DNA of 64,000 nucleotides from assembly GCA_016181175.1 (NCBI GenBank), contig JACOZV010000004.1, positions 7,718-71,717 on the forward strand, in the 5' to 3' direction. This DNA comes from Candidatus Yanofskybacteria bacterium. Its GTDB lineage: Bacteria; Patescibacteriota; Minisyncoccia; 2-02-FULL-40-12; IGHO2-01-FULL-4-A. Of the stretch, positions 3,289 to 58,666 are shown one piece after another. The notes under the pieces are model-generated. The model searched no databases. It was not told the origin of the DNA and was given only the letters and a program-made list of their open reading frames with translations. The translations under genes were made by a program, and so were the position numbers. Positions within the stretch are counted from its first letter, which is position 1; every line of letters begins with the position of its first letter.

Positions 3289-6200
3289 TTATTTATAAAA
3301 ATTCCAGAAATTTCCAAAAATATCTAACGCTTTGTCTTTTAACCCCCCCCCCCCCGTAACTTGTATTTCCAAACTGGAATCGCTGAAATTACCGGCCAGA
3401 TCAAAAACTCTGGCAGTTATTTTATGCTTTCCCGACTCAAAAAACGGGACAAGCAACTCCAAAGCAACAGGAAAAAATATTCCATCATCAATCTTAAAAT
3501 AAACAACCGGCTGAACAATTTCCTCGAAACCCACACTGAATTTAAATCTCACAGTCTCGCCGATTTTCACCGACAAAGAACTCGCCTTTATTACTGGCGG
3601 TGCCGGCGGCGTTGAATCAATCATAATTTTGAATTGGGAAACCGGCCCGAGACGGCCATCGGTGTCTTCTGCCTGGAGACGAAAATAGTATATGCTGTCT
3701 TCATCAATGGAGATGTTAAGAAAATTGTCCGAAGTTGAAACGGCTTTGCCCGGTATAAAGTCCGGGGTTTGATTCAACGCATAGTGATAAACGCCGCCTT
3801 CAAGCAACGGCCAAGCCAGCTGAATATCTTTTTTATGATACCAGCGATTGCTGTTGGGATGGCTTGGTGAAAATATGGGTATTATTTCATTAATGCTCGC
3901 GTTGGTTAATCCTTGTCGGGTAATACTGTAAAAAGCGTCACTTGCCGCCCTAAGCACATCGGTCCCCAAGCCGTCATTGGCAAGAACTTGCGTCCCTTCG
4001 GCGAATTTAAGCGAAGCCCCGCCCACAGTTAACGGCTGCACTACAAGCTCGGCTACCGTACCGGACGGTTCGGAAAATCCGGGATTAGGAACGCCGCAAA
4101 CAATTGTTACCGTTCCCGCCGCATTATCAATATCTTTTTCCAAAAAAAGTCCGGGATCGCACAAGGAATTGGCCGTCAAAATATCAACTATTTCAAACAC
4201 GCTCGGGTCATATTTTATTACCGCGCTCACGACATTGATAATTTCTCCACCGGTAAGCACCTTTATGGCAATGTTTTTTTCAACAAATTGGTTAATGATA
4301 TCCGCTTCAGGTTCAAATTTAATCGTAGAATTATAGATAGAATACGGCGCTCTTTCTAATTTTATAGAAATGCGGTCCAGTTTGTTGTAACTGATAAAAT
4401 ACATCACGGAAAATAAAGTCAGGGTTATAATTAAAATAGTTGGAATCCGATGCCTATGATGGAAAACACTCAGGAAAAAAGATAAATATATGAAAATCGC
4501 AAGAAAAGCAAGCGCCATAAAACCGGCCAAAACAATGCTATAGAAATTGTGGCTGGTCGGAAAAAGAATAATCGTTCCGCCGGGGCTTCCCTCAATTCCC
4601 GGAAATACGATATTGCTGACAATGTAATATTCCTCGCTTATTTTAAGTTCTTTGGCAAATTTAGGAACTTGTTTGGCAATTAGGTCGGAACCAACCGAGA
4701 AAAAGCTATTCAGTATAAAAATAGTATCCTTATCCTTTAAGCTTGTGCTGATTAAACCCTCCTCTGGAGTATAAAAAATAACATGCGAACCATTCTTCAA
4801 ATACTTGTCCTGAAACCGTACGGCATAAGAATTGTTAAATAAGTTTCCCAGAACAATAGCGCCGATAACTTTGTCATCTTCTAAAATAAGGGAGTTGCTT
4901 ATTGCGGCCAGGGGATTTTTGACCCCACGGACGATTTCAGTAACCGTTTCACCTTTAGCCACCCGCCTTCCTTGGATAGTGGTTTGAAAAACATTATCTC
5001 CGCGTTGATCCGGCAAATGTGAACGAACAAGCACAAATCCGTCCTTGTCAGTTACGGCAATAAAACTAAGTTCCCTTTCTTTTGCTTCAGCTTGCACGAT
5101 GGAGAGAAGCTCCAGCGTATCGCCTGCCTTCAGGGCATCGTTAAGAACTCCTGAAGAGACAATCTCCTCTCTTTGGTCAGAAATGTATTTGAGTTCCTCG
5201 GAAAAAACAGTCTTTAGTTGAATAATTTGTTTATCAGTTGAATAAGAATACCACAAGCCCAAGAGCCAGTTAGAAAATAGCATAATGATTACAAACACCA
5301 GAATGCTTAGCAATATTTCAATCATCTCTTTTTTGTGTATCCAGTCGGTTTTGCTTTTTTTATTTAATTTCTTTTTTTTACGATATTTTTTAATTAAATA
5401 ACTCTTAACTTCATGCCCAGTAGCTAGAATCTCCTTTTTTGTCGCGACAAAAATGAGCGCAATAATCAAAATAGAGGAAACCAAAAGCCATTCATTTTTA
5501 ATAAAGTTAATGAAGCCGCCGAATATCTTTGTCAAAAAGTCAAAAATTAGTTCGGTAAAAGACCCGGATTTTACCCTAAATGATACTCGGTTAGAATCAA
5601 TAGAAATGGCACTCCTGTCATCAACCGCCTGCGCCGTCACCTCGTGGCGACCTCCTCGTTCCGGCTTAAACTCAACCTGCCAATATCCATTGGCATCGGC
5701 GTGCGTTTCCAGTATGTATTCCGGGTTGACCCTGATGGCAACCCGAACTTTTTGGTTGGGCTTGGCTTTTCCATTTATAGTAATGGTTTCGCCTATTTTA
5801 ACTTGCGGCTTTTCTATTTGATTTAAAATCACCGGCTCTATTGATTGAATCTCCATTTGATAGTCAGATTCTGAATAATTCCCTGCTTTATCAAAAGCTC
5901 TTATGATAATCTTGCGCACCCCTGGCAATTGCAAAGGCATTTTATATAATCCGGCCAACCCCGGTTCTATTTTTAACCAGTCACTCTCACCGATTTTCAT
6001 TTCATATCTATCAATACCAGATGTACCGTCTGAAGTATCAAAAGCGAGTCTGGGTTGCGGGTTGGTTAAGTCCGCCACATCCAATCTGGTTATTTTAAAA
6101 TCTGCGGGTTTTTGGGTATCAACGTTAAACTTAAACGAAGTTACGGGACCTAATCCCGCTGGTGTTTTCGCACGGGCGTTAAAATAAAATTCGCCCTCTC

Positions 6201-49080: not shown

Positions 49081-50559
49081 TTACATTACCAACTTCCTAT
49101 ATGCCCCATCTAAAAAAGTGTCTATTGCTCTGATCTGATTATCTCTCCTTAAATCGAGGAGTGTTTTTATATCATCGTCGTCAAGCGCGATGATAAAACC
49201 TCGATCGTCGGACGCTGTATCTTTGCATCGTTGAATGAAGCGCGTCTTGTTGGTAAAACTCCTGCATATTAACAATCCGAATCTGCCACGATTAGTAGAA
49301 AACCTACCGGACAACTGGTCGAGTTCGGGGTTAGCCGGATCAGATGAGTAATTCTTACACTCAACAAAAATATAGCTTGATGGTACTCGCTTGTTCTGCG
49401 GTAATTCCCAAAAGAACCCTTTTTTTGCAGCGTTTTCGAAAACGATATCAACTTTCTTTCTCCTTTCATGTAGCGGCTGCTCCTTTTTCGGATTTATAAG
49501 AAACGGATAAAAAATGGCAGTGAGCGCCCCTTGAATATGGTTATGGAAATTGTCTGCGTCAGCATCACCAGTATCTATACGATCCAGTTCTGCTTTTAGA
49601 GCATCGAAGTCAAAAGCTGGGCGTGCACCTATAGCATCAATGTCTTCGTTACTAATTTCTTCGAGATTGTACTGTTTACTGTCGCGATATCGTCGCAAAA
49701 CTTCCGGATGATCTTTCGAAAAAGTGTAAAGAAATTGCTTCGAATGAGGGTGAAGTTCTTTGAGTGCCTTTTTTGTAGGCGGTCTACGCGTTCCATCTTT
49801 AAGCACCCTCACAAGGGCAGAGTTCGCGCTTAAATGCTCTTCCTGTAAAAAGTTTAGTACGAAATGCTGATAGTATTCCTGATGGCTAAACTCCAAACTA
49901 AAACGCGCAACTGCTTTAGGGACAAGTAAAACATTTCTATCATTACACACCGGAAGATTAACATACTCATTAGTCCATTCATTACGAACCGTATTCCAAA
50001 CAGTGCCGCTTGGTACGTTGTGCATTGTAATACCCCAAAATATACATTCGTTTTGGGTGTACTCGATTAACTTTCCGCGAATAATGTTAGTGGTCATGTC
50101 AGATATCTTGTCATGGCTGATGCCTTCGATAAGAAGTTCGCACTCTTCAAGATCTTTAAGAAACCCAGTTCTTACAGCCGAGCTTTCAGCCAACGCATCA
50201 TATAAATCGTTCGCCTGATCTCCTCCTACACCCCTACCTCTCGGGGATCCTCCAACAGACAAACCAAAACGAGTTTGATTCGGCTCTCGCAATCCTGAAA
50301 GCATGTATTTTGCGTCATCCTTTCTATCGGCTCTGATCAAGTCGATAACTCTTTGAAAAAAATTAACGATCTGATTGTGGCAATCGATTGACCACCTATC
50401 ATTCCGCTTTGAAAGAGCATAAGGATCAATAAACAAAGGAATATCCCCATTATTTATGGGAACATCGACAAAATCGAGTTCGTACTGGCTTTTACCAAGT
50501 CGGAAGTTCTCCGAAAAGGTTTCGTATCTTCTTGGTTGTTGTGTTCTTTGTCTTGGCAT
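49081..50559 (-). CDS. large hypothetical protein with a C-terminal PD-(D/E)xK-type nuclease motif
   Basis: ...KKVDIVFENAAKKGFFWELPQNKRVPSSYIFVECKNYS...GRFGLLICRSF fits D-x(n)-E-x-K with a downstream Q/R. No other recognisable domain. It is the last large gene of the type I R-M operon. Confidence 0.5.
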   Translation of the reverse strand: MPRQRTQQPRRYETFSENFRLGKSQYELDFVDVPINNGDIPLFIDPYALSKRNDRWSIDCHNQIVNFFQRVIDLIRADRKDDAKYMLSGLREPNQTRFGLSVGGSPRGRGVGGDQANDLYDALAESSAVRTGFLKDLEECELLIEGISHDKISDMTTNIIRGKLIEYTQNECIFWGITMHNVPSGTVWNTVRNEWTNEYVNLPVCNDRNVLLVPKAVARFSLEFSHQEYYQHFVLNFLQEEHLSANSALVRVLKDGTRRPPTKKALKELHPHSKQFLYTFSKDHPEVLRRYRDSKQYNLEEISNEDIDAIGARPAFDFDALKAELDRIDTGDADADNFHNHIQGALTAIFYPFLINPKKEQPLHERRKKVDIVFENAAKKGFFWELPQNKRVPSSYIFVECKNYSSDPANPELDQLSGRFSTNRGRFGLLICRSFTNKTRFIQRCKDTASDDRGFIIALDDDDIKTLLDLRRDNQIRAIDTFLDGAYRKLVM

Positions 50560-50567
50560 GGTTCATG

Positions 50568-52250
50568 CTATTTGATCAATTTCTTATTCCAGCCCTTTGA
50601 TTTGATGAACTTGAGCGTGCCTTCGATTTCGGCTTTCCTAAACTTGTTTGGTTTCCATGCTTGAATCTTGTCATTGATCGTTGTGAGATCGTCGCTTTTT
50701 GCATCCTGCACAACCTTGCAGACGGTTGCCAAGCACTCAATTTGAGCGCTGGTGGAGTTTTTAATTGCCGGCATAAGATCATTAAGGACGGACTCCATGT
50801 TGCTCAAGATTTTTGAGTTGTATTTGAAGAGTTTACCGGAGTTAGCGCCTAAACCATAGACGCCGTTTTTTTGCTGAAAGAAGCCATTGCGAGGACTTGC
50901 GCCGGCGGTGATGGCTTTCTTAATCTGTAGATCGTAGGGGCCGAAGTTCTGCGAGGTAAAGCTGAAGCCGAGCGGTACCCTGTAAACTTCCTGCGCGAGA
51001 TATAAGAGCTTCGCCACAACCATTTCACCACGTTCAAAACGTTGCAACACCGCTCCGATGGCTTGCCACACCGGAAAGACACTTGCTTTGACAGGAACAG
51101 CAGCCACGCCCTCTTTTACCAACTCACCAGCAAGCGCTTTTGACAAGGCGGAATCAAAAAGTTCCTTCAGCTTCTCTTTTTGAACGAGAAGTCCTTTTTT
51201 ATACTCTTTAATAGCACTAAACCTCTCGGCAATGGCATGCTGGTCTGTCGTTGGTGGTACCATGATTTTTATTTTTTTAAGTGCGGTAGAGTTTACTGCG
51301 GCTTGATTTACCCACGGCGTGCATAGATAACGAAATCTATCGGTTGAATATAAGTATTGAAGATATATAGAGAAGTAGCGCGGATCTAATACTTTTTCGT
51401 TTGTGCGAATCCGAGTGATGTGATTTGAAAAGACATACTTGTAATCCTTGTCTATGTAAACGCTTTTTCCAACTAAACTAATACTGTTTGTATTATTAAA
51501 TAGGACATCACCACTCTTCAGGAAATAAGTTTCCGCATGTGGGTAATCCTGTGGAATATACTTGATGCTATCAAAGTTCAAACTACCGTCATCGCCGATA
51601 TTATTAGGTCTGATTTGTCCAATACCCTTCCCAACCGGACGGAAGGCAAAACCATTCGTAACATCGACTACTAACGCACCGATCTTTTCTTCCTTCCAGC
51701 TTTTTGACGATGATCCAAAAATCTTATTCAAAAGCGACTGAAAAAGCTGATCTGTTTTTTCAATAAGCGCATCATTGAGTTTTTGGGCTTCGCGGATAGA
51801 ATCAACACGTTCTGCAATTGCTTGTTGGGTATTTAAAGACGGCATTGGTACTCGTAAATTTTCAAGGAAGGTTCTATTCAAATGTGGTACTGCCGCTCCT
51901 TGCGCTGCTGATCTAATTTTTTGCTGATTAAATTGCAAAAGGTAAGCAAGGTATCGACTTTCCAGTGTTTCGTTATGAACCACTTTAGCAATCGTGGAAC
52001 CAACAAATCCTCTTAAACCGATACCAACGGTGCCGGCATAAGCACCATCCCAAACCAATAAAACATCGTCATTGTCGCATCGAACTCCGTTATTTTCTGA
52101 AGTGTAAAGCGTATATTGACCACTTCTTAAATTTTCAATGCCAATATAAGGCAAGGTGTCCTTTGCGGCTTCTGCTGCGGAAATCATCATTTTACCTTTC
52201 GCAAAAGAAATAAGTTCGCCTAATTTTTTTGTTTGATAATTACTTTGCAT
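50568..52250 (-). CDS. hsdS: type I restriction-modification specificity subunit HsdS (two TRDs) with a 180-aa C-terminal Panacea/DUF4065-like extension
   Basis: The N-terminus and central conserved region are typical HsdS (LGELISFAKG...IGIENL...; central NTQQAIAERVDSIREAQKLNDALIEKTDQLFQSLLNKIFG; distal HAIAERFSAIKEYKKGLLVQKEKLKELFDSAL). After about aa 380 an extra domain carries KLLYLAQEVYRVPLGFSFTSQNFGPY. Confidence 0.75.
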   Translation of the reverse strand: MQSNYQTKKLGELISFAKGKMMISAAEAAKDTLPYIGIENLRSGQYTLYTSENNGVRCDNDDVLLVWDGAYAGTVGIGLRGFVGSTIAKVVHNETLESRYLAYLLQFNQQKIRSAAQGAAVPHLNRTFLENLRVPMPSLNTQQAIAERVDSIREAQKLNDALIEKTDQLFQSLLNKIFGSSSKSWKEEKIGALVVDVTNGFAFRPVGKGIGQIRPNNIGDDGSLNFDSIKYIPQDYPHAETYFLKSGDVLFNNTNSISLVGKSVYIDKDYKYVFSNHITRIRTNEKVLDPRYFSIYLQYLYSTDRFRYLCTPWVNQAAVNSTALKKIKIMVPPTTDQHAIAERFSAIKEYKKGLLVQKEKLKELFDSALSKALAGELVKEGVAAVPVKASVFPVWQAIGAVLQRFERGEMVVAKLLYLAQEVYRVPLGFSFTSQNFGPYDLQIKKAITAGASPRNGFFQQKNGVYGLGANSGKLFKYNSKILSNMESVLNDLMPAIKNSTSAQIECLATVCKVVQDAKSDDLTTINDKIQAWKPNKFRKAEIEGTLKFIKSKGWNKKLIK

Positions 52251-52869
52251 AAGAATGCGCAGAGTATTGAATTCTACCTACGCGGTTTAATAAGCGCGTA
52301 TCCCGAACTTTTAAGTTTTCACCATCTTTATCGAATGGCCTTATTTCTGCTTTCCAAATAGATCTACAAAAAACAGTGTTCTGATCATTCATATATGTAA
52401 TTTCTAAACATACTGGTATCGCAAATTCAGCCATTTCATACCATTCTCTAAAATTTTTTATGAGTTGAAGTTTGATTCTAAATGACTCATCCTCTGTGGT
52501 CTGATAGAGGGGCACCTTATGATATCTTTCTTCTGCGATGGGCATACCGGTCGCTTTGGGTTGGGAGATATTAAAAGCCGATCCGCGACCAGAATTGAAA
52601 CAGTCAAACTCTATGGAAAAAACTATTTCAAAATGATTCGCATCAGCACGGATTATGCTTCCGGCATCCATCACACCATATCCATGCTCTACTTCACTAT
52701 GTCTAACCCCAACCCATATTCTTAATGGACGCAAAATTAAGCTGGGTACTGTACTTAATGCAGAATTCCAATCTGCTTTTCTGATAGCTTTTATCGAAAT
52801 CCACAGTGAAACAACTGCGGTTATCCCGACTAAAATATCTGCCGTTTTAGAAATTATTTCAAAATTCAT
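52240..52869 (-). CDS. hypothetical protein with N-terminal TM helix, embedded between hsdM and hsdS
   Basis: MNFEIISKTADILVGITAVVSLWISIKAI... It overlaps the hsdS start by 11 nt and begins 7 nt after the hsdM stop. Confidence 0.5.
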   Translation of the reverse strand: MNFEIISKTADILVGITAVVSLWISIKAIRKADWNSALSTVPSLILRPLRIWVGVRHSEVEHGYGVMDAGSIIRADANHFEIVFSIEFDCFNSGRGSAFNISQPKATGMPIAEERYHKVPLYQTTEDESFRIKLQLIKNFREWYEMAEFAIPVCLEITYMNDQNTVFCRSIWKAEIRPFDKDGENLKVRDTRLLNRVGRIQYSAHSYAK

Positions 52870-52875
52870 AATCTT

Positions 52876-54405
52876 TTATCCCAGTTTATCTGTCATCTCT
52901 TCTTGTAATTTTGTTAGATCTTTATTGATTTTCTCAATTTCTTTCAAAATAATTTTTGGCTCGCGGTGTTTTATCTCTTCTCCGATAGCATATGGGTTAT
53001 AAGTGTTTGCAGAAAGTATGTAATCATTTTCGATGATTTCTTTAACTGGCGTAAACCATGCAAGCTGTTTTTCAACTGCGCGGTTTTTATGCCAGAGTTC
53101 CAACAGCTTCGGAATATCATTTCTATATTGGCTGCCGAATTTTTTGGATGCTGAAAGCGATGAACCATCACCTTGCATATCAAAGAACCATACCTTTGCA
53201 GATTCATCGAGTTTCGGCACCGCCTTTTTTTTGAACACCAAGAAGGACGTTTTTACGCCGGCATACGGCTGAAACACGCCTGCCGGCATGGAAACAACCG
53301 CCTGTAAGTCCGTATTTTCAAGTAGAAAACGGCGGATCTCTTTATCATCGCGGTTGGTACCAAAAAATGAACCTTCGGGAAGGATTATGCCGGCTCTGCC
53401 ATTGGGCTTGAGCGAGTTTATAACATGACCCAAAAATAGAACCTGTGTTTTGGTTGATTTGACCGGCAAGGTTGGTTTTATACGTTCCCGATCAACCTTT
53501 CCAGAGAATGGTGGATTTGTAAGGACAATATCGAATGTGCGCAGATCATCCTCATCTTCAGATCCAGCAACCGTGTCTTTGCGCTTAATGTTCGCACTCT
53601 CTATGCCATGTAATATCAAATTCATAAGTGCTAACCGCACCATCTCCGGATCAACATCAGAACCCAAAAAGGTTTTTTTGGTTAGAAATTCCCACTGTTT
53701 TTTATCGAGCTTATCTCCAAACCCCCTCTTGTGTCCATTTTCCTCTTCAATGCTTTTGGGATCGCTATTTCTTAATCGGATCCAATCATAGCCGGAGATG
53801 AGGAAGCCACCAGAACCACACGCAGGATCATAAACAGTTTCGCCAATTTTTGGATTCACCATTTCAACTATGACGCGAACGATATGACGCGGAGTGAGAA
53901 ATTGTCCAAGTTCGCCGGCTGATTCAATACTTGCAAGCAGCTCTTCATAAAGATCGCCCTTAACATCTGTGTCTAATCCTGTTAAATTGATCGTGTCAAT
54001 AATTTCAATCGTGTTTTTTAATGTAACAGAATGGGGAATTTCGAGCTTCGCATCATAAAAAATTTGCCGTATGTTAGAGTGTCCATTTTGCAATCGCTCC
54101 ACAAAGGGAAATACCTCATCACGAACAATTTTATACAATTCATCGCCAGCTTTTTCTTTCCAGCGCGACCATCGGAATTTTTCGTTTTTGCCCTCGAAAA
54201 TTGATTTATGTTTACGCCCAGTAAGTTCTTCGCCTCTCTCCATAGAAATATCCTGTTCCTCAAGCATTTTCAAAAAAAACAAAAAGCTAATCTGCTGGAT
54301 CCTTCTCACAGGGTCTCGTAAACCTGCACCCCAAAGATAATCGTTCAGGCGATCTAATTTTTGGCGAAACTCTATTCTTAATTGTTGTATTTTTTGTTCG
54401 GGCAT
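52876..54405 (-). CDS. hsdM: type I restriction-modification N6-adenine DNA methyltransferase subunit
   Basis: NPPFSGKV catalytic motif, AdoMet site DPACGSGGFL, HsdM N-terminal domain. Confidence 0.85.
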   Translation of the reverse strand: MPEQKIQQLRIEFRQKLDRLNDYLWGAGLRDPVRRIQQISFLFFLKMLEEQDISMERGEELTGRKHKSIFEGKNEKFRWSRWKEKAGDELYKIVRDEVFPFVERLQNGHSNIRQIFYDAKLEIPHSVTLKNTIEIIDTINLTGLDTDVKGDLYEELLASIESAGELGQFLTPRHIVRVIVEMVNPKIGETVYDPACGSGGFLISGYDWIRLRNSDPKSIEEENGHKRGFGDKLDKKQWEFLTKKTFLGSDVDPEMVRLALMNLILHGIESANIKRKDTVAGSEDEDDLRTFDIVLTNPPFSGKVDRERIKPTLPVKSTKTQVLFLGHVINSLKPNGRAGIILPEGSFFGTNRDDKEIRRFLLENTDLQAVVSMPAGVFQPYAGVKTSFLVFKKKAVPKLDESAKVWFFDMQGDGSSLSASKKFGSQYRNDIPKLLELWHKNRAVEKQLAWFTPVKEIIENDYILSANTYNPYAIGEEIKHREPKIILKEIEKINKDLTKLQEEMTDKLG

Positions 54406-54407
54406 AG

Positions 54408-56663
54408 TTATCGTGTACAGATCCTTTGGTTAAGCTCCGAGAGAGCGGATTGTAAAACACCTTCCTCAAACACTCGCAACGCATAATTAAGACCACCGAT
54501 TTGCCGGAAGATCGGCTCGTTGAATATGGAAATATCAACCGGCTCTTTGCGAACGATACATTGCGACTTTACCAAACGCAGGATTTTTATTTGATCGGAT
54601 GCAAAGTTTTTCTCGATTAGCCATGATTCAAAAAGCTGATTTACACGCTGCTCATGTAGTTGCTCTTCTGTAGGGAACTCCTTTGTTTTGAGTGCTGCTT
54701 GTATGAAGTCATTGAGCGTGCCTACCGGATAGCGATATGCTTCTCGCAAGTTTGCTTCGTTAAAATAGAACTCCGGAGAATTAAGTTTTTCGGAAAGGAA
54801 GGCGGTTTCGTCATTTGAAAGATCTTCGCCTTGTTTAACTTTTGAAATAAGCGGCTCGGTTTTAGCCATCTCTTGAACTTGCTGCTCCCATGCCACCTGA
54901 TAATCATCGGCATCAATTCTTTCGCCTTCTGCTCCAACTTCGATATGCGCACGCTGCATAACCACGTCCATGTTTTCGGGTGCTGTTTCCGGCACTTGAA
55001 CAAAAAGTCGCTTCACCACTTCTTCCTCTTCCTGCGTTAAATCTTCAGCTTCGGTTCCCCACGGAATACCAGCTTTAATTTTTGCATAGGCAGAATACGG
55101 ATCAAATCCTTCGTCATTGAAGTAACGAGTAACGCCAGCAAAGTCATAAATACGAAAAGATGTTTTGCTGATTTTTTGATATAATCGGCTGCCACGTCCT
55201 CGCATCTGTTGGTAAAGGATCGGGGAACGTGTAGGACGCGCCATGATCAAGTTTTCTACCATTGGGACATCGATGCCGGTATCCATCATACCCACCGAAA
55301 CCGCTACCATCGGCATTTCTTGGTGCTTAAAACGTCTTATGGCTCCACGAGGATCTTCGGTATCGGAAGTAATAACTTCAGCGTATCTTCCCTTATATTC
55401 CGGATATGTCTGATTGAGATAATACGCCAATTGCGCAGCGTGTTTTTTCGTAACAGCATAAAGAATGGTTTTGCGATGGTGTTTTGGTTCATGCTTTTCT
55501 TCTTCCTCTCTGAATGTTTTTGCCAATTGCTCGTTTCTTGCCGGCACATTGATTTTTCTCTCCAAATCTTCGGCGTTGTAATCTTCACCCTCAAATTGCA
55601 CACCTTCTAAAGACACTTTGGTGTCGATCTGTAAGATCTCATAACCAGCAAGAAATCCCTCTTTGATGCCTCGTCGAATACTGTATAGAAATGTCGGTTT
55701 ACCCTTTTTTTCACGCTCATCCCAACAACCAAAGAGCTTATAGGTGTTACGATCAATAAACACACTCGGCGTTGCTGTAAGACCTATCCGGATTGCGTCA
55801 AAATGCGATAGGACAGCGTTGTAGATGCCGAAGATGGATCTATGTGCTTCGTCCGAGATAACCACATCAAAATAACCACTTGTAAAATTCGATAGTTGCG
55901 AATAAAGAGTGGGAAGTGTCGAGATGATTATTGAGGATTCGTCTTTTTGCTTGCCTCCGTAAAGAAGCTTTGTAGGATAATCTTTCAAAATTTCATCAAA
56001 AACTTCCTTTGTTTGTATGCCTAAATCAATGCGATCAACAAGAAATAAAACACGCCGGATGAGATTCGCTTCAAACAGCCGTTTGAGATAAAGAGCTATG
56101 GTATCTGTCTTGCCAGTGCCGGTTGCCATAGCGATGAGCATTTTGCGCAAACCGCCCTCAATGGTTTTGTCCATGATCTGCATGGCCTCCTTTTGATATG
56201 GGCGTGGTGTGCGTAATTCGCCACCTTTAAAATAATTGTCGGGTACAGGAATGGCGGTTATCGGCTTTTGATCTATTCGTAGGGTTTGGATTTTTTCTAA
56301 ATCGCGTTGAGAAAAGAAGGTAATTACCTTTTGCTCTGGACGATATTTGTAATCCCAAAAATAAATATCCTCTCCATTGGAAAGGAAAATGAAATCGATA
56401 CCCAGCTCTTCTGCGTAGGTCAATGCCTGCTGTTTTGCCAATACTGGTTCAGTTGAAAACCGCTTTGCTTCGATAAGCCCGATGGCTCTGCCGCGTCTAT
56501 CCCTCAAGAAATAATCGGCACGTCCATCCTTCACCGGATCTTCGGTTGAAACTTGATTTTTATCCTCAATATCCCAGCCAGCTTCGCGGAGTTTGCGATC
56601 GATGACAATGCGAGCGTCCGTTTCTCTTGAGTTGTTATTGTTATTTGTCATATTCATTTTCAT
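54408..56663 (-). CDS. hsdR: type I restriction enzyme R subunit (short form: N-terminal PD-(D/E)xK nuclease + SF2 helicase)
   Basis: DYFL...IGLIEAKR nuclease core; MATGTGKT Walker A; DEAH box (VVISDEAH). Its stop overlaps the hsdM start (ATGA). Confidence 0.8.
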   Translation of the reverse strand: MKMNMTNNNNNSRETDARIVIDRKLREAGWDIEDKNQVSTEDPVKDGRADYFLRDRRGRAIGLIEAKRFSTEPVLAKQQALTYAEELGIDFIFLSNGEDIYFWDYKYRPEQKVITFFSQRDLEKIQTLRIDQKPITAIPVPDNYFKGGELRTPRPYQKEAMQIMDKTIEGGLRKMLIAMATGTGKTDTIALYLKRLFEANLIRRVLFLVDRIDLGIQTKEVFDEILKDYPTKLLYGGKQKDESSIIISTLPTLYSQLSNFTSGYFDVVISDEAHRSIFGIYNAVLSHFDAIRIGLTATPSVFIDRNTYKLFGCWDEREKKGKPTFLYSIRRGIKEGFLAGYEILQIDTKVSLEGVQFEGEDYNAEDLERKINVPARNEQLAKTFREEEEKHEPKHHRKTILYAVTKKHAAQLAYYLNQTYPEYKGRYAEVITSDTEDPRGAIRRFKHQEMPMVAVSVGMMDTGIDVPMVENLIMARPTRSPILYQQMRGRGSRLYQKISKTSFRIYDFAGVTRYFNDEGFDPYSAYAKIKAGIPWGTEAEDLTQEEEEVVKRLFVQVPETAPENMDVVMQRAHIEVGAEGERIDADDYQVAWEQQVQEMAKTEPLISKVKQGEDLSNDETAFLSEKLNSPEFYFNEANLREAYRYPVGTLNDFIQAALKTKEFPTEEQLHEQRVNQLFESWLIEKNFASDQIKILRLVKSQCIVRKEPVDISIFNEPIFRQIGGLNYALRVFEEGVLQSALSELNQRICTR

Positions 56664-56676
56664 TCTTGAGCTTGAT

Positions 56677-58476
56677 CTATAAATTCTCGTAATACCCCCT
56701 GATCTTTTTCGCCATGAGTTTGCGGCGTTCCTTCAAAAACCTTTCGTAATCCCCAAGCTCCATATTCTGAAAGCCATCCGGTATGCAATTCTGTTTTAGG
56801 TTCTCGGCGAGATCTTTTTTATCGGTTATGCCGCCATACTTGAGCTTGCCTCCTTCGGTTTGTTTCATTACTTCAGCCATGTACTCTTTGGGAGATTTTT
56901 TGCCGACTTTGATATTTATTTCAGATTGAGCATAAGTAAAGTTGCCAATCTGGTTGTAATCGCCCCTACTTAAGCCGCCTGCTTTCTTCAGGTATTCCTT
57001 TGGAAAGAGATGATGGATGTCGCCGCGATGACTGATCATATTACCAACGGTAATGTCGGTTGAAAGAAAGCCCCTGTCGTTATTTTTAACCTGTGCCGCA
57101 AAAAAAAGATTGAGAAATGGATTGCTGATGCTCGCCTTATCGAGTTCCTGAATAAGCTGCGCGTTCCAAAAAGCATCGGAGAGTTGCGCTTCTTCGATTG
57201 ATTTCAAAATCTCGCCAGCATCGCCATTGGAAATCTGCTTAATATCCGAATCAAATTGGCTTTCCGGTGATCCGGAATAACGTCCGGTGAGGATAGACAT
57301 CACAAACCAGCGTTGGACATACTTTTCGATCAAGCTTGGATCGACACTCTTATCGCGCAGCTTGAGATATAAAATATAGGCAAAGTTAAGAGCGTTTTGC
57401 GAATTGATAAGGTCGTTGCTTATAAAGCCGCAGGATTTGATGATCATTACAAACCGCTTGAAGTTTGTTTCATTTACAAAATCCAGTACCGCATCACGGA
57501 GTTTTTGGAAAGACGCATCCATTATGTCTTGCTCAAAACTGCGTGTTTCAAAGTTACGCCCCGAAAGCAGTCCGACAAGATCCGCCATCTTGCCTCGTTC
57601 AAATTGTTTGGTGAAACTCACACGCAACACATCGGAATAATCCGGATCGTAGAGGTCGTCATTTTCATCTTTAAGCCATGCAAGTTTTGAAAGGTAAACA
57701 GTTTTGTTAAACTCTGCATCATTTTCAGTTATGTGTTTGTAAAACTGCGGCTCGCGCGCAAGATGGCAAAAATAGTCGACACACTTTCTTAAATTAACGC
57801 CGAAATTATCCTCCTTGTCATAAGAAGCTATCTTCGACATGGCAAAGTCAGCTTGGCTTAATACAACACCTTTGGAATTGATACGGATAAAAATCTCGGT
57901 AACCGTTTCAATATCTAAACCGGCATCAAGTTCAATAAAACCAACCTGCTTGCTTTTGATCTGTAATAACTTCTCAATGTTCTTTTCAATGAGTTCACGA
58001 TTTACGTCAAGATTTTTGTCGCAATAGTCAGTTACATCTTTGAATAAGCCGCCGTCCTTACTCATAAGTTTTGAGATGTCAGCTATCCACGCCTTGTCCT
58101 TTTTTATTGCCGGTGTGAGTGTGGCAAATTCTTCTATGATGGGGTGAAATGCAATATAGATCCGTTCCTCCTTATAATCTTTATTGATAATGTTTTGACC
58201 GAGAATTGCCGCACGGAGAGCGGTAATGCGTTGCTGTCCGTCAATCAAGACCTTTTTGCCGTTGGAAATGGAGCCATCTTTAAGACGAACATCGGGGTTT
58301 TTCCATGCAATGATATAGCCGATCGGATAGCCACGATAAAGCGAATCCATCAGATCGCGCACCTTTGTCGAATCCCAAACAAACGGACGCTGGATTTCCG
58401 GTATAGCGATTTCCTTTTCCTGAACCCAATTCAGGATATTGCTCACAAAGTATTGATTGACTGTGTATTTTTGCAT
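56677..58476 (-). CDS. GmrSD-family type IV restriction enzyme (DUF262 ParB-like N domain + DUF1524 HNH-like C domain)
   Basis: IPEIQRPFVWDSTKVRDLMDSLYRGYPIGYII...LIDGQQRITAL is DUF262. The C-terminus GDIHHLFPKEYL is DUF1524. I take the start at MQKYTV (58476). The ORF call to 58638 reads through an HTH gene in another frame. Confidence 0.75.
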   Translation of the reverse strand: MQKYTVNQYFVSNILNWVQEKEIAIPEIQRPFVWDSTKVRDLMDSLYRGYPIGYIIAWKNPDVRLKDGSISNGKKVLIDGQQRITALRAAILGQNIINKDYKEERIYIAFHPIIEEFATLTPAIKKDKAWIADISKLMSKDGGLFKDVTDYCDKNLDVNRELIEKNIEKLLQIKSKQVGFIELDAGLDIETVTEIFIRINSKGVVLSQADFAMSKIASYDKEDNFGVNLRKCVDYFCHLAREPQFYKHITENDAEFNKTVYLSKLAWLKDENDDLYDPDYSDVLRVSFTKQFERGKMADLVGLLSGRNFETRSFEQDIMDASFQKLRDAVLDFVNETNFKRFVMIIKSCGFISNDLINSQNALNFAYILYLKLRDKSVDPSLIEKYVQRWFVMSILTGRYSGSPESQFDSDIKQISNGDAGEILKSIEEAQLSDAFWNAQLIQELDKASISNPFLNLFFAAQVKNNDRGFLSTDITVGNMISHRGDIHHLFPKEYLKKAGGLSRGDYNQIGNFTYAQSEINIKVGKKSPKEYMAEVMKQTEGGKLKYGGITDKKDLAENLKQNCIPDGFQNMELGDYERFLKERRKLMAKKIRGYYENL

Positions 58477-58477
58477 A

Positions 58478-58666
58478 TTACTTTTTTGGTTTCTTGATAT
58501 TCGATCGAGAACGAATAAACGCCTCGAGATCGCTCTCGCTGATCCGCCAATAGCCGACTTTGGTCGCCTTGAGCCGCCCACTCGAAATATAGCGATACAA
58601 GGATCGCTCGCTAACTCGCAAATACTTTGCCGCTTCACGTAATGTAAGAAATTTCTTTTTGGTCAT
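58478..58666 (-). CDS. excisionase/AlpA-family helix-turn-helix DNA-binding protein
   Basis: LTLREAAKYLRVSERSLYRYISSGRLKATKVGYWRISESDLEAF. It is the first gene of the defence operon. Confidence 0.65.
   Translation of the reverse strand: MTKKKFLTLREAAKYLRVSERSLYRYISSGRLKATKVGYWRISESDLEAFIRSRSNIKKPKK

Follow-up and report, generated by a model that had tools for sequence, protein, structure and literature searches.

Introduction

Accessory genes may be nested in type I restriction-modification (R-M) operons; one of them, prrC, occupies the hsdS-hsdR interval rather than the hsdM-hsdS interval. The ultra-small bacteria of the Candidate Phyla Radiation (CPR, or Patescibacteria) have tiny genomes with few recognised defences and are mostly without CRISPR, and their R-M operons are a likely place for missing immunity modules. 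According to a published survey, type I R-M, BREX and DISARM operons often hold nested genes, predominantly with defence functions, and PrrC is almost exclusively R-M-embedded (Payne et al. 2024, bioRxiv 10.1101/2024.01.29.577857). TgvAB of Vibrio cholerae is a tested example embedded in a type I R-M locus (PMC11411939). Here we describe a gene for a 209-amino-acid (aa) protein, the focal gene, which lies between hsdM and hsdS in a 64,000-nucleotide (nt) stretch of a Candidatus Yanofskybacteria genome (contig JACOZV010000004.1; the whole stretch is called the window below). We read it as a mobile, autonomous, defence-associated module that acts at the membrane, a reading to which we give somewhat better than an even chance, and it probably serves as an extra anti-virus module.

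The focal gene and its family

The focal gene and the two R-M genes that adjoin it are as follows.

52240..52869, minus strand: focal gene, 209 aa; ATG start, homologues at 42-82% identity, ratio of non-synonymous to synonymous substitution (dN/dS) ~0.1, AlphaFold2 (AF2) predicted local distance difference test score (pLDDT) 85
52876..54405, minus strand: hsdM, type I methyltransferase subunit; Pfam N6_Mtase 1e-61, HsdM_N 7e-12
50568..52250, minus strand: hsdS, specificity subunit, 560 aa; Methylase_S 6e-34, PADLOC Specificity_I 5e-65 over residues 4-377 only

An original prediction had placed a 209-aa open reading frame (ORF) at 52240-52869, and the ORF was confirmed there on the minus strand with an ATG start. 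Its 11-nt overlap with hsdS (TATGCAAAGTAA) was likewise borne out, with hsdS starting at 52250 and the hsdS ATG lying inside the last focal codons (...TCT TAT GCA AAG TAA). The gap to hsdM had been given as 7 nt and measures 6 nt (bases 52870-52875, AAGATT). The protein had also been said to be co-translated with the R-M subunits; what can be kept of this is that the gene is co-oriented in the operon, with junctions compatible with translational coupling.

The focal ORF is a genuine gene and not a chance ORF, and the overlapping plus-strand ORFs at 52519-52725 and 52655-53002 are therefore regarded as spurious. A word-indexed search of 5.8 billion clusters returned 15 homologues at 42-82% identity, a profile search raised the family to 32 clusters (90% identity clusters), and an exhaustive hidden Markov model (HMM) search of 1.84 billion 50%-identity representatives gave 25 family clusters only. 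The gene is intact in every one of ~22 distinct genomic copies, with none of the stop-codon or frameshift polymorphism in related copies that had been named as a sign against it. Nei-Gojobori dN/dS, taken for pairs with unsaturated dS, is 0.093 between loci L008 and L015 and 0.102 between L010 and L028, and the gene is under strong purifying selection.

The named source organisms are all CPR/Patescibacteria (Yanofsky-, Morani- and Kaiserbacteria), and by these searches the family is rare and CPR-restricted. Two short contigs (L017, L018) with an identical focal sequence come from metagenome-assembled genomes labelled 'uncultured Gammaproteobacteria' and 'Methanosarcinales archaeon', both binchicken co-assemblies, and are probably mis-binned CPR contigs. 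Profile searches of the focal ORF against Pfam, NCBIfam, PADLOC and PHROGs gave zero matches, in keeping with the soluble domain having been called unrecognisable. Against PDB sequences the focal profile gave GspD alone, at an E-value of 0.42, which is noise. A scan of IMG/VR found 0 viral loci with the family, and in BFVD nothing matched the focal protein at E below 1e-3.

Genomic contexts

The 40 loci recovered collapse to 22 distinct contexts. Type I R-M loci make up 14 of these, with the focal gene between hsdM and hsdS and almost always last before hsdS. Four HsdM lineages, at most 39% identical to one another, are represented among the loci that carry it. The recurrence of homologues between hsdM and hsdS, which had been proposed as a check, is thus seen in 14 distinct R-M loci and four HsdM lineages. 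Each R-M locus holds from no other embedded gene (the window and L013) up to five, including SduA_C Shedu-like nucleases, PIN_12, a Ymh protein, a DndB-like protein, helix-turn-helix (HTH) proteins and several proteins without a family. Fic and HTH-Panacea pairs occur elsewhere in focal-bearing R-M operons.

The remaining eight contexts (36%) are without R-M genes.

L004: focal gene adjoins a DUF4145 gene
L025: focal gene overlaps the last 4 nt of a Shedu-like gene; a DUF262-like motif is present at the N-terminus of a protein encoded upstream
L035/L038: preceded by HNH and nuclease-like genes; edge position in an integrated element that carries serine recombinases, Dam and Imm_superinfect
L040: preceded by SMODS and SLATT_4; the surrounding element has Prim-Pol and an S24 repressor
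P0035 (23%-identical member): beside HNH
L021: hsdS remnants on both flanks, without hsdS
L012 (member P0009): fused to a C-terminal extension with three transmembrane (TM) segments
L019 group: flanked by peptidase M16 and IS200-like genes

Defence genes accompany the focal gene in 20 of the 22 contexts, with or without an R-M system. This consistency is an obstacle to regarding the gene as a passenger with no part in defence, which would either have an unrelated cellular role (in the envelope or transport, for example) or be a selfish cassette exploiting the well-expressed, recombinogenic 5' region of hsdS. Such a passenger would be expected to have no recognisable effector or enzymatic domain, as is found here, and it would suit both the one context between peptidase M16 and IS200-like genes and the fusion of P0009 to a C-terminal region with three TM segments. 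More than 50% of embedded genes lack an assigned role (bioRxiv 10.1101/2024.01.29.577857). Against a passenger, besides the consistent defence contexts, stand the strong purifying selection across hosts and the published surveys, which describe embedded genes as mostly defence rather than housekeeping. The passenger explanation is unlikely, and the defence-associated module remains the preferred reading.

Decoupling of the focal gene from HsdM

Pairwise identities of the focal proteins do not follow the HsdM lineages. The focal proteins of L010 and L028 are 87% identical and their HsdM proteins 32%, and in L024 and L030 the figures are 72% and 35%. The reverse is seen in L001 and L006 (focal identity 61%, HsdM 87%) and in L016 and L030 (50% and 67%). 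These figures imply movement of the focal gene between type I systems that are not related.

In one and the same database, 32 focal clusters compare with at least 120 clusters of HsdM relatives at 68-81% identity to the window HsdM, and 938 at E below 1e-100, so that at most a few per cent of the close relatives of the window operon, below ~5%, can carry the gene, a share that compares cluster counts and not individual loci. By this count the gene is not present in most related hsd loci, as a core or obligate type I subunit would be, and the incongruent identity matrices show no co-phylogeny with HsdM/HsdR. Conservation in homologous type I loci, on which the original prediction had staked itself, is accordingly a divided result: the gene recurs in such loci, but sporadically. 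Dependence on the R-M enzyme, which the prediction implied, is weakened by the eight non-R-M contexts, by the incongruence of the focal tree with HsdM and by the rarity of the family next to close HsdM relatives.

The same data bear on a PrrC-type guardian of the R-M system, in which HsdM/HsdS would hold the sandwich domain of the focal protein inactive until a phage anti-restriction protein freed it, whereupon the helices would oligomerise and depolarise the membrane. The sequestration of PrrC in the type I complex is a precedent (PMC3874165; PMC12707154), and a guardian would fit an operon-embedded gene with an 11-nt hsdS overlap and a 6-nt hsdM gap that sits in type I loci in 14 of its 22 contexts. 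However, eight contexts are without any R-M genes, the focal tree is incongruent with HsdM, which argues against a co-evolving interface, the same cassette (87% identity) occurs with HsdM proteins only 32% identical, and the protein has no similarity to PrrC or RloC. We consider a guardian distinctly unlikely, and on the preferred reading the focal protein is neither a restriction-enzyme subunit nor a PrrC-type guard.

Neighbouring nuclease genes

All-versus-all BLASTP and phmmer comparison of the neighbours revealed no constant partner gene. Only two neighbours recur, a Shedu-like gene in 4 loci and a 184-aa gene in 2. The Shedu-like gene stands directly before the focal gene in the following loci.

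L015:33-1196: split by a stop codon
L008:2777-2947: 56-aa remnant
L025:3038-4201: intact; SduA_C 3e-9
L016:6870-7949: intact; SduA_C 6e-19, 3-nt gap to the focal gene

The focal gene is intact in all four despite the decay of the Shedu-like gene. EcoKI is reportedly membrane-associated, an observation said to go back to Holubova et al. in 2000 and 2004, and the focal protein might be imagined as a membrane tether that recruits HsdR complexes or Shedu-like, HNH or PIN nucleases to the inner membrane face where DNA enters. The beta domain is predicted to face the cytoplasm and the upstream gene is often a nuclease gene, namely SduA_C (L016 and L025, with remnants in L015 and L008), PIN_12 (L030) or HNH (L035/L038 and P0035). 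A tether is nevertheless improbable, as these nucleases have unrelated folds, which makes a common binding interface unlikely, the focal gene is preserved where its Shedu-like partner has decayed, contexts L012, L019 and L040 have no adjoining nuclease, and defence islands are nuclease-rich in any case. An autonomous module, without a fixed partner, is again preferred.

Protein architecture and topology

The AF2 model, computed from a 15-sequence alignment (pLDDT 85; predicted template modelling score, pTM, 0.73), has a helix over residues 3-39 followed by an all-beta domain of 12 strands from 44 to 203, a beta-sandwich of ~165 aa. The N-terminal TM helix of the original prediction was recovered as a TM-type hydrophobic segment.

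52783..52857, minus strand: hydrophobic TM-type helix, residues ~5-29; Kyte-Doolittle maximum 1.86 over residues 11-29, AF2 helix
52741..52782, minus strand: juxtamembrane motif RKADWNSALSTVPS, residues 30-43; family consensus K-S-D/E-W-N/D-S-A-M-x-T-x-P-S
52261..52740, minus strand: all-beta sandwich domain, residues 44-203, predicted cytoplasmic
52567..52596, minus strand: motif N-S-G-R-G-S-A-F-N-I, residues 92-101; family N-x-G-R-G-x-A-F-N-I
52354..52395, minus strand: motif Y-M-N-D-Q-N-T-V-F-C-R-S-I-W, residues 159-172; family Y-T-N-D-Q-x-N-x-x-C-x-S-x-W

In the juxtamembrane motif K31, S36, T40 and P42 are invariant in A1, and P42 is invariant in the wider family. N92, G94, G96 and A98 of the second motif are invariant in 22 diverse members; in the third, Y159 is invariant and N161, D162, Q163, C168, S170 and W172 are conserved in at least 90%. 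A disulfide or metal site formed by C90 and C168 was rejected, as C90 is not conserved in the wider family.

A hydrophobic segment with a Kyte-Doolittle value of at least 1.5 is found in 43 of 46 full-length members. In nearly all members the N side of the helix has a net charge of -2 to 0 and the C side +1 to +4 (for example IKAIRK... and SRKALKKS...), and because the N flank is negative or neutral and the C flank positive, the positive-inside rule predicts an N-out/C-in topology with the beta-sandwich in the cytoplasm. Members P0017, 18, 21, 22, 32 and 35 have a second hydrophobic segment or a signal-peptide-like N-terminus, and their N-termini are basic (MKVRFK-, MNKKDY-, MNKRK-), so that the sandwich would have the same cytoplasmic placement in these variants. 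Small residues (A10, G15, A18, S21, S25, A28, S32, S36) form a stripe along the whole helix length within an arc of ~80 degrees, which is conserved even among members at 20-35% identity. Since a simple lipid anchor would not need such a stripe, it suggests helix-helix packing.

An extracytoplasmic exclusion protein, its sandwich outside (N-in/C-out) to block phage adsorption or genome injection like Sie- or Ltp-type proteins, is very improbable. In its favour, surface proteins commonly combine a single-pass anchor with an Ig-like sandwich, a disulfide could join C90 and C168, neither of which varies in the close subfamily, and the element around one copy contains an Imm_superinfect gene. Against it, the charge distribution is opposite to that required, the 2-TM variants also place the domain inside, C90 varies in the wider family, and IMG/VR, BFVD and PHROGs gave zero matches.

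Foldseek comparison with PDB and BFVD found nothing below an E-value of 0.016. KirBac chimeras ranked first (probability 0.63), and the Kir-like resemblance, a TM helix joined to a cytoplasmic Ig-like domain, may serve as a lead only. The family member P0009 (L012:2482-3483), which lies outside any R-M locus, carries a fused C-terminal extension, ~125 aa long and containing three hydrophobic segments, which had zero matches among the neighbour genes of other loci.

Repeats at the hsdS 5' end

The hsdS genes open with ATG-N6/9-TGG CCA ACA AAA AAA TTA GG (M..WPTKKLG), and in most loci the focal stop lies 2 nt before the hsdS TGG, which gives the recurrent 11-nt overlap.

52219..52250, minus strand: hsdS start codon and conserved 5' segment (ATG N9 TATCAAACAAAAAAATTAGG); the cargo-bounding repeat in related loci

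Upstream copies or remnants of this segment precede the focal gene in L010, L021, L024 and L028, where a 14-codon mini-ORF has its TAA one base before the focal ATG. DNA homology among these four loci runs from the upstream remnant to just past the downstream copy, and the flanks are unrelated. The window has the downstream copy only (52219-52238, 3 mismatches), its upstream boundary being the hsdM stop. Copies of the repeat (ATG N6-9 TGGCCAACAAAAAAATTAGG) are positioned as follows.

L028:3600-6116: five copies
L008:3578, 4104-4130, 4966: three copies
L010:3113, 3783: two copies
L021:5756, 6420: two copies
L024:7258, 9256: two copies

In L028, with 5 cargo genes, the five copies mark each boundary of the cargo array past the first gene after hsdM, and 4 copies have 3 mismatches or fewer, compared with 0 expected from 200 shuffles. 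Several cargo genes themselves open with the HsdS N-terminus.

L008, 184 aa: MQNNWPTKKLGE
L008, 284 aa: MNSINNWPTK
L028, 183 aa: MNCHWPTKKLGK
L001, 125 aa: MKTNWQTK

On the simplest reading of these repeats, recombination at the conserved start of hsdS would exchange cargo genes in cassette form, and the cargo would take its translation start or coupling from the same sequence. A wider possibility is that CPR type I R-M operons are cassette platforms, in which promoterless defence genes are captured and swapped by recombination at the hsdS 5' end and the hsdS-start remnant of each capture serves as start or coupling signal for the cargo. The focal family would then be among the most exchanged cassettes and a new class of membrane-tethered effector or sensor, its cytoplasmic beta-sandwich gating an oligomeric helix bundle. 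We put this forward as a speculation that is rather doubtful as it stands; if true, it would amount to integron-like logic without an integron. A literature search returned nothing relevant on cassettes bounded by hsdS repeats or on CPR defence accessory genes.

A second recurrent cassette encodes a 183-184-aa protein without a Pfam match, found after the focal gene at L008:3566-4120 and L028:4724-5275, two loci with HsdM proteins only 32% identical.

Proposed function

In the mechanism we propose, the focal gene would be single-gene mobile cargo lodged in the hsdM-hsdS interval and expressed from the host operon. Recombination at the conserved 5' sequence of hsdS would carry the gene from operon to operon, and this sequence would also provide its translational coupling. 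The beta-sandwich would hang on the cytoplasmic face of the membrane (N-out/C-in) and the small-residue stripe would mediate helix packing, either in a homo-oligomer or against another membrane protein. As an autonomous defence module acting at the inner face of the membrane, the protein would use the N-x-G-R-G-x-A-F-N and Y-T-N-D-Q loops of its cytoplasmic sandwich to sense or bind a ligand associated with phage or with DNA entry. The helices would then bring about either abortive infection, by perturbing the membrane, or exclusion, by blocking the entry of the genome. The module as such is the firmer part of this scheme, while the specific step of sensing followed by membrane perturbation is tentative and less likely than not.

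Several observations weigh against the proposal. The protein is without homology to characterised defence proteins and its defence role is guilt by association, drawn from a biased sampling of contexts in which all loci were found via the focal gene and many contigs are short. The Kaiserbacteria loci (L019/32/33), in the peptidase M16/IS200-like context, lack an evident defence neighbour. A stoichiometric partnership of the focal protein with HsdS could still explain the 11-nt overlap of the two genes in the R-M loci. The predicted topology derives solely from the positive-inside rule. No recombinase or site-specific integrase is found among the called genes of the R-M loci, and the cassette mechanism, drawn only from the repeats, might involve either homologous or site-specific recombination.

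The host operon in the window

The operon, all on the minus strand, runs in the order HTH_17, GmrSD-like gene, hsdR, hsdM, focal ORF, hsdS and PDC-M36A gene, with spacers of 13, 2, 6, -11 and 8 nt from the GmrSD-like gene through the 492-aa gene. Its members beyond those listed above are given here.

58478..58666, minus strand: HTH_17 (excisionase/MerR-type), 62 aa, operon head; HTH_17 3e-18
56677..58638, minus strand: GmrSD-like (DUF262) type IV restriction-like gene, the first large gene of the operon; GmrSD_N 7e-33, PADLOC HEC-05 7e-32
54408..56663, minus strand: hsdR, restriction/translocase subunit; ResIII 3.5e-34, EcoEI_R_C 2.8e-17, HSDR_N
49081..50559, minus strand: 492-aa gene, starting 8 nt past hsdS; PADLOC PDC-M36A 2e-48, phrog_27295 4e-105

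A promoter and terminator scan placed the best promoter-like site at 58710-58682, upstream of the HTH_17 gene, and the strongest terminator-like site at 48696-48669. The listed GTG start of the GmrSD-like ORF overlaps the HTH_17 gene, and the true start is therefore probably an internal ATG near 58476. Type IV and type I restriction systems share one transcription unit here, as in the Vibrio TgvAB locus. The 492-aa gene has no Pfam domain and is a putative second defence candidate in the focal operon.

Past its body of two target recognition domains (residues 4-377), hsdS has an extra C-terminal domain of ~175 aa (50571-51095, minus strand), with weak matches to the NCBIfam DarG antitoxin C-terminal family (6e-6) and Pfam SocA_Panacea (0.018), and it may be an antitoxin-like domain fused to HsdS. 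Related loci have a separate HTH-Panacea gene and a small gene between hsdS and hsdR instead of this extension. Identity of the extension with the Panacea proteins of those loci was not confirmed, BLASTP giving an 8-residue match only and Pfam an E-value of 0.018.

Comparison with known systems

The focal gene resembles prrC and rloC as a single accessory gene nested in, and co-expressed with, a type I hsd operon, and as a possible second line of defence. The proteins differ. PrrC, at ~400 aa, is soluble and joins an ABC-ATPase-like N-domain to an anticodon-nuclease C-domain; the focal protein has 209 aa, a TM helix and a beta-sandwich. Neither an ABC-ATPase-like (Walker A/B) domain (Pfam, NCBIfam and PADLOC at E cut-offs of 0.1-1, and AF2) nor a C-terminal anticodon-nuclease domain (Pfam, NCBIfam, PADLOC) was found, and there was no PADLOC PrrC match. 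The PrrC/RloC analogy drawn in the original prediction is therefore not supported. Embedding in a type I hsd operon is shared by the window copy, and in 8 of the 22 family contexts the gene is not embedded.

The candidates embedded in R-M, BREX and DISARM operons (PADLOC PDC and HEC families) and TgvAB share the arrangement, being same-strand genes nested in a type I operon and also found non-embedded, and the focal gene fits this published pattern of 'guilt by embedding'. The focal gene is a same-strand gene within a complete type I system in the window and in 13 further loci. It matched 0 families among the PADLOC PDC/HEC HMMs, and its family differs from these in being absent from the RefSeq-built PADLOC-DB v2, CPR-restricted and of unrelated architecture. 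A repeat-bounded cassette structure is not mentioned in the accessible portion of Payne et al. 2024.

Imm_superinfect, lactococcal Sie, RexB and SLATT proteins are likewise short; they too begin with a TM segment, are encoded in defence or mobile contexts and presumably act at the membrane, but they are mostly membrane-embedded, whereas the focal protein has a large conserved beta-sandwich that is predicted to be cytoplasmic. Membership of the Imm/Sie superinfection exclusion proteins was rejected, there being no sequence or profile similarity (PHROGs 0) and no phage-borne copies (IMG/VR, BFVD); an edge position in an integrated element is seen for one copy.

The inner helix and cytoplasmic Ig-like domain of Kir and KirBac channels may recall the focal layout, but their score lies in the generic beta-sandwich range, where the fold scores of the membrane-binding beta-sandwiches aegerolysin, actinoporin, Cry34 and Nakanori also fall. 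Sequence identity to Kir and aegerolysin-type proteins is 6-10%, without shared family-specific motifs. A Kir channel was rejected: the protein lacks a pore loop and a selectivity filter, a single TM segment is usual in the family, and the loop of the 2-TM variants, without a filter motif, is only ~12-20 aa. A type IV pilin or archaellin was rejected for want of a class III signal peptide and cleavage motif before the helix.

With integron cassettes the cargo shares the form of promoterless single-gene cassettes in arrays, each bounded by repeats and expressed from a resident operon (L028); individually repeat-bounded cassettes are seen in L028, L008, L010, L021 and L024. Here, however, the repeat consists of coding sequence from the 5' end of hsdS instead of an attC hairpin, the loci contain no integrase, and the mechanism may be homologous recombination. 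Repeat-bounded cassettes would offer a testable mechanism for R-M embedding, which the consulted portions of the literature describe statistically and do not explain mechanistically.

The focal family is thus invisible to Pfam, PADLOC, NCBIfam and PHROGs, yet selected and swapped between unrelated type I systems, and if it protects against phage it would add a new membrane-tethered architecture to the defence repertoire. Accessory genes embedded in R-M loci are already known; the protein family and its architecture are new, as is a cassette structure that may explain the embedding.

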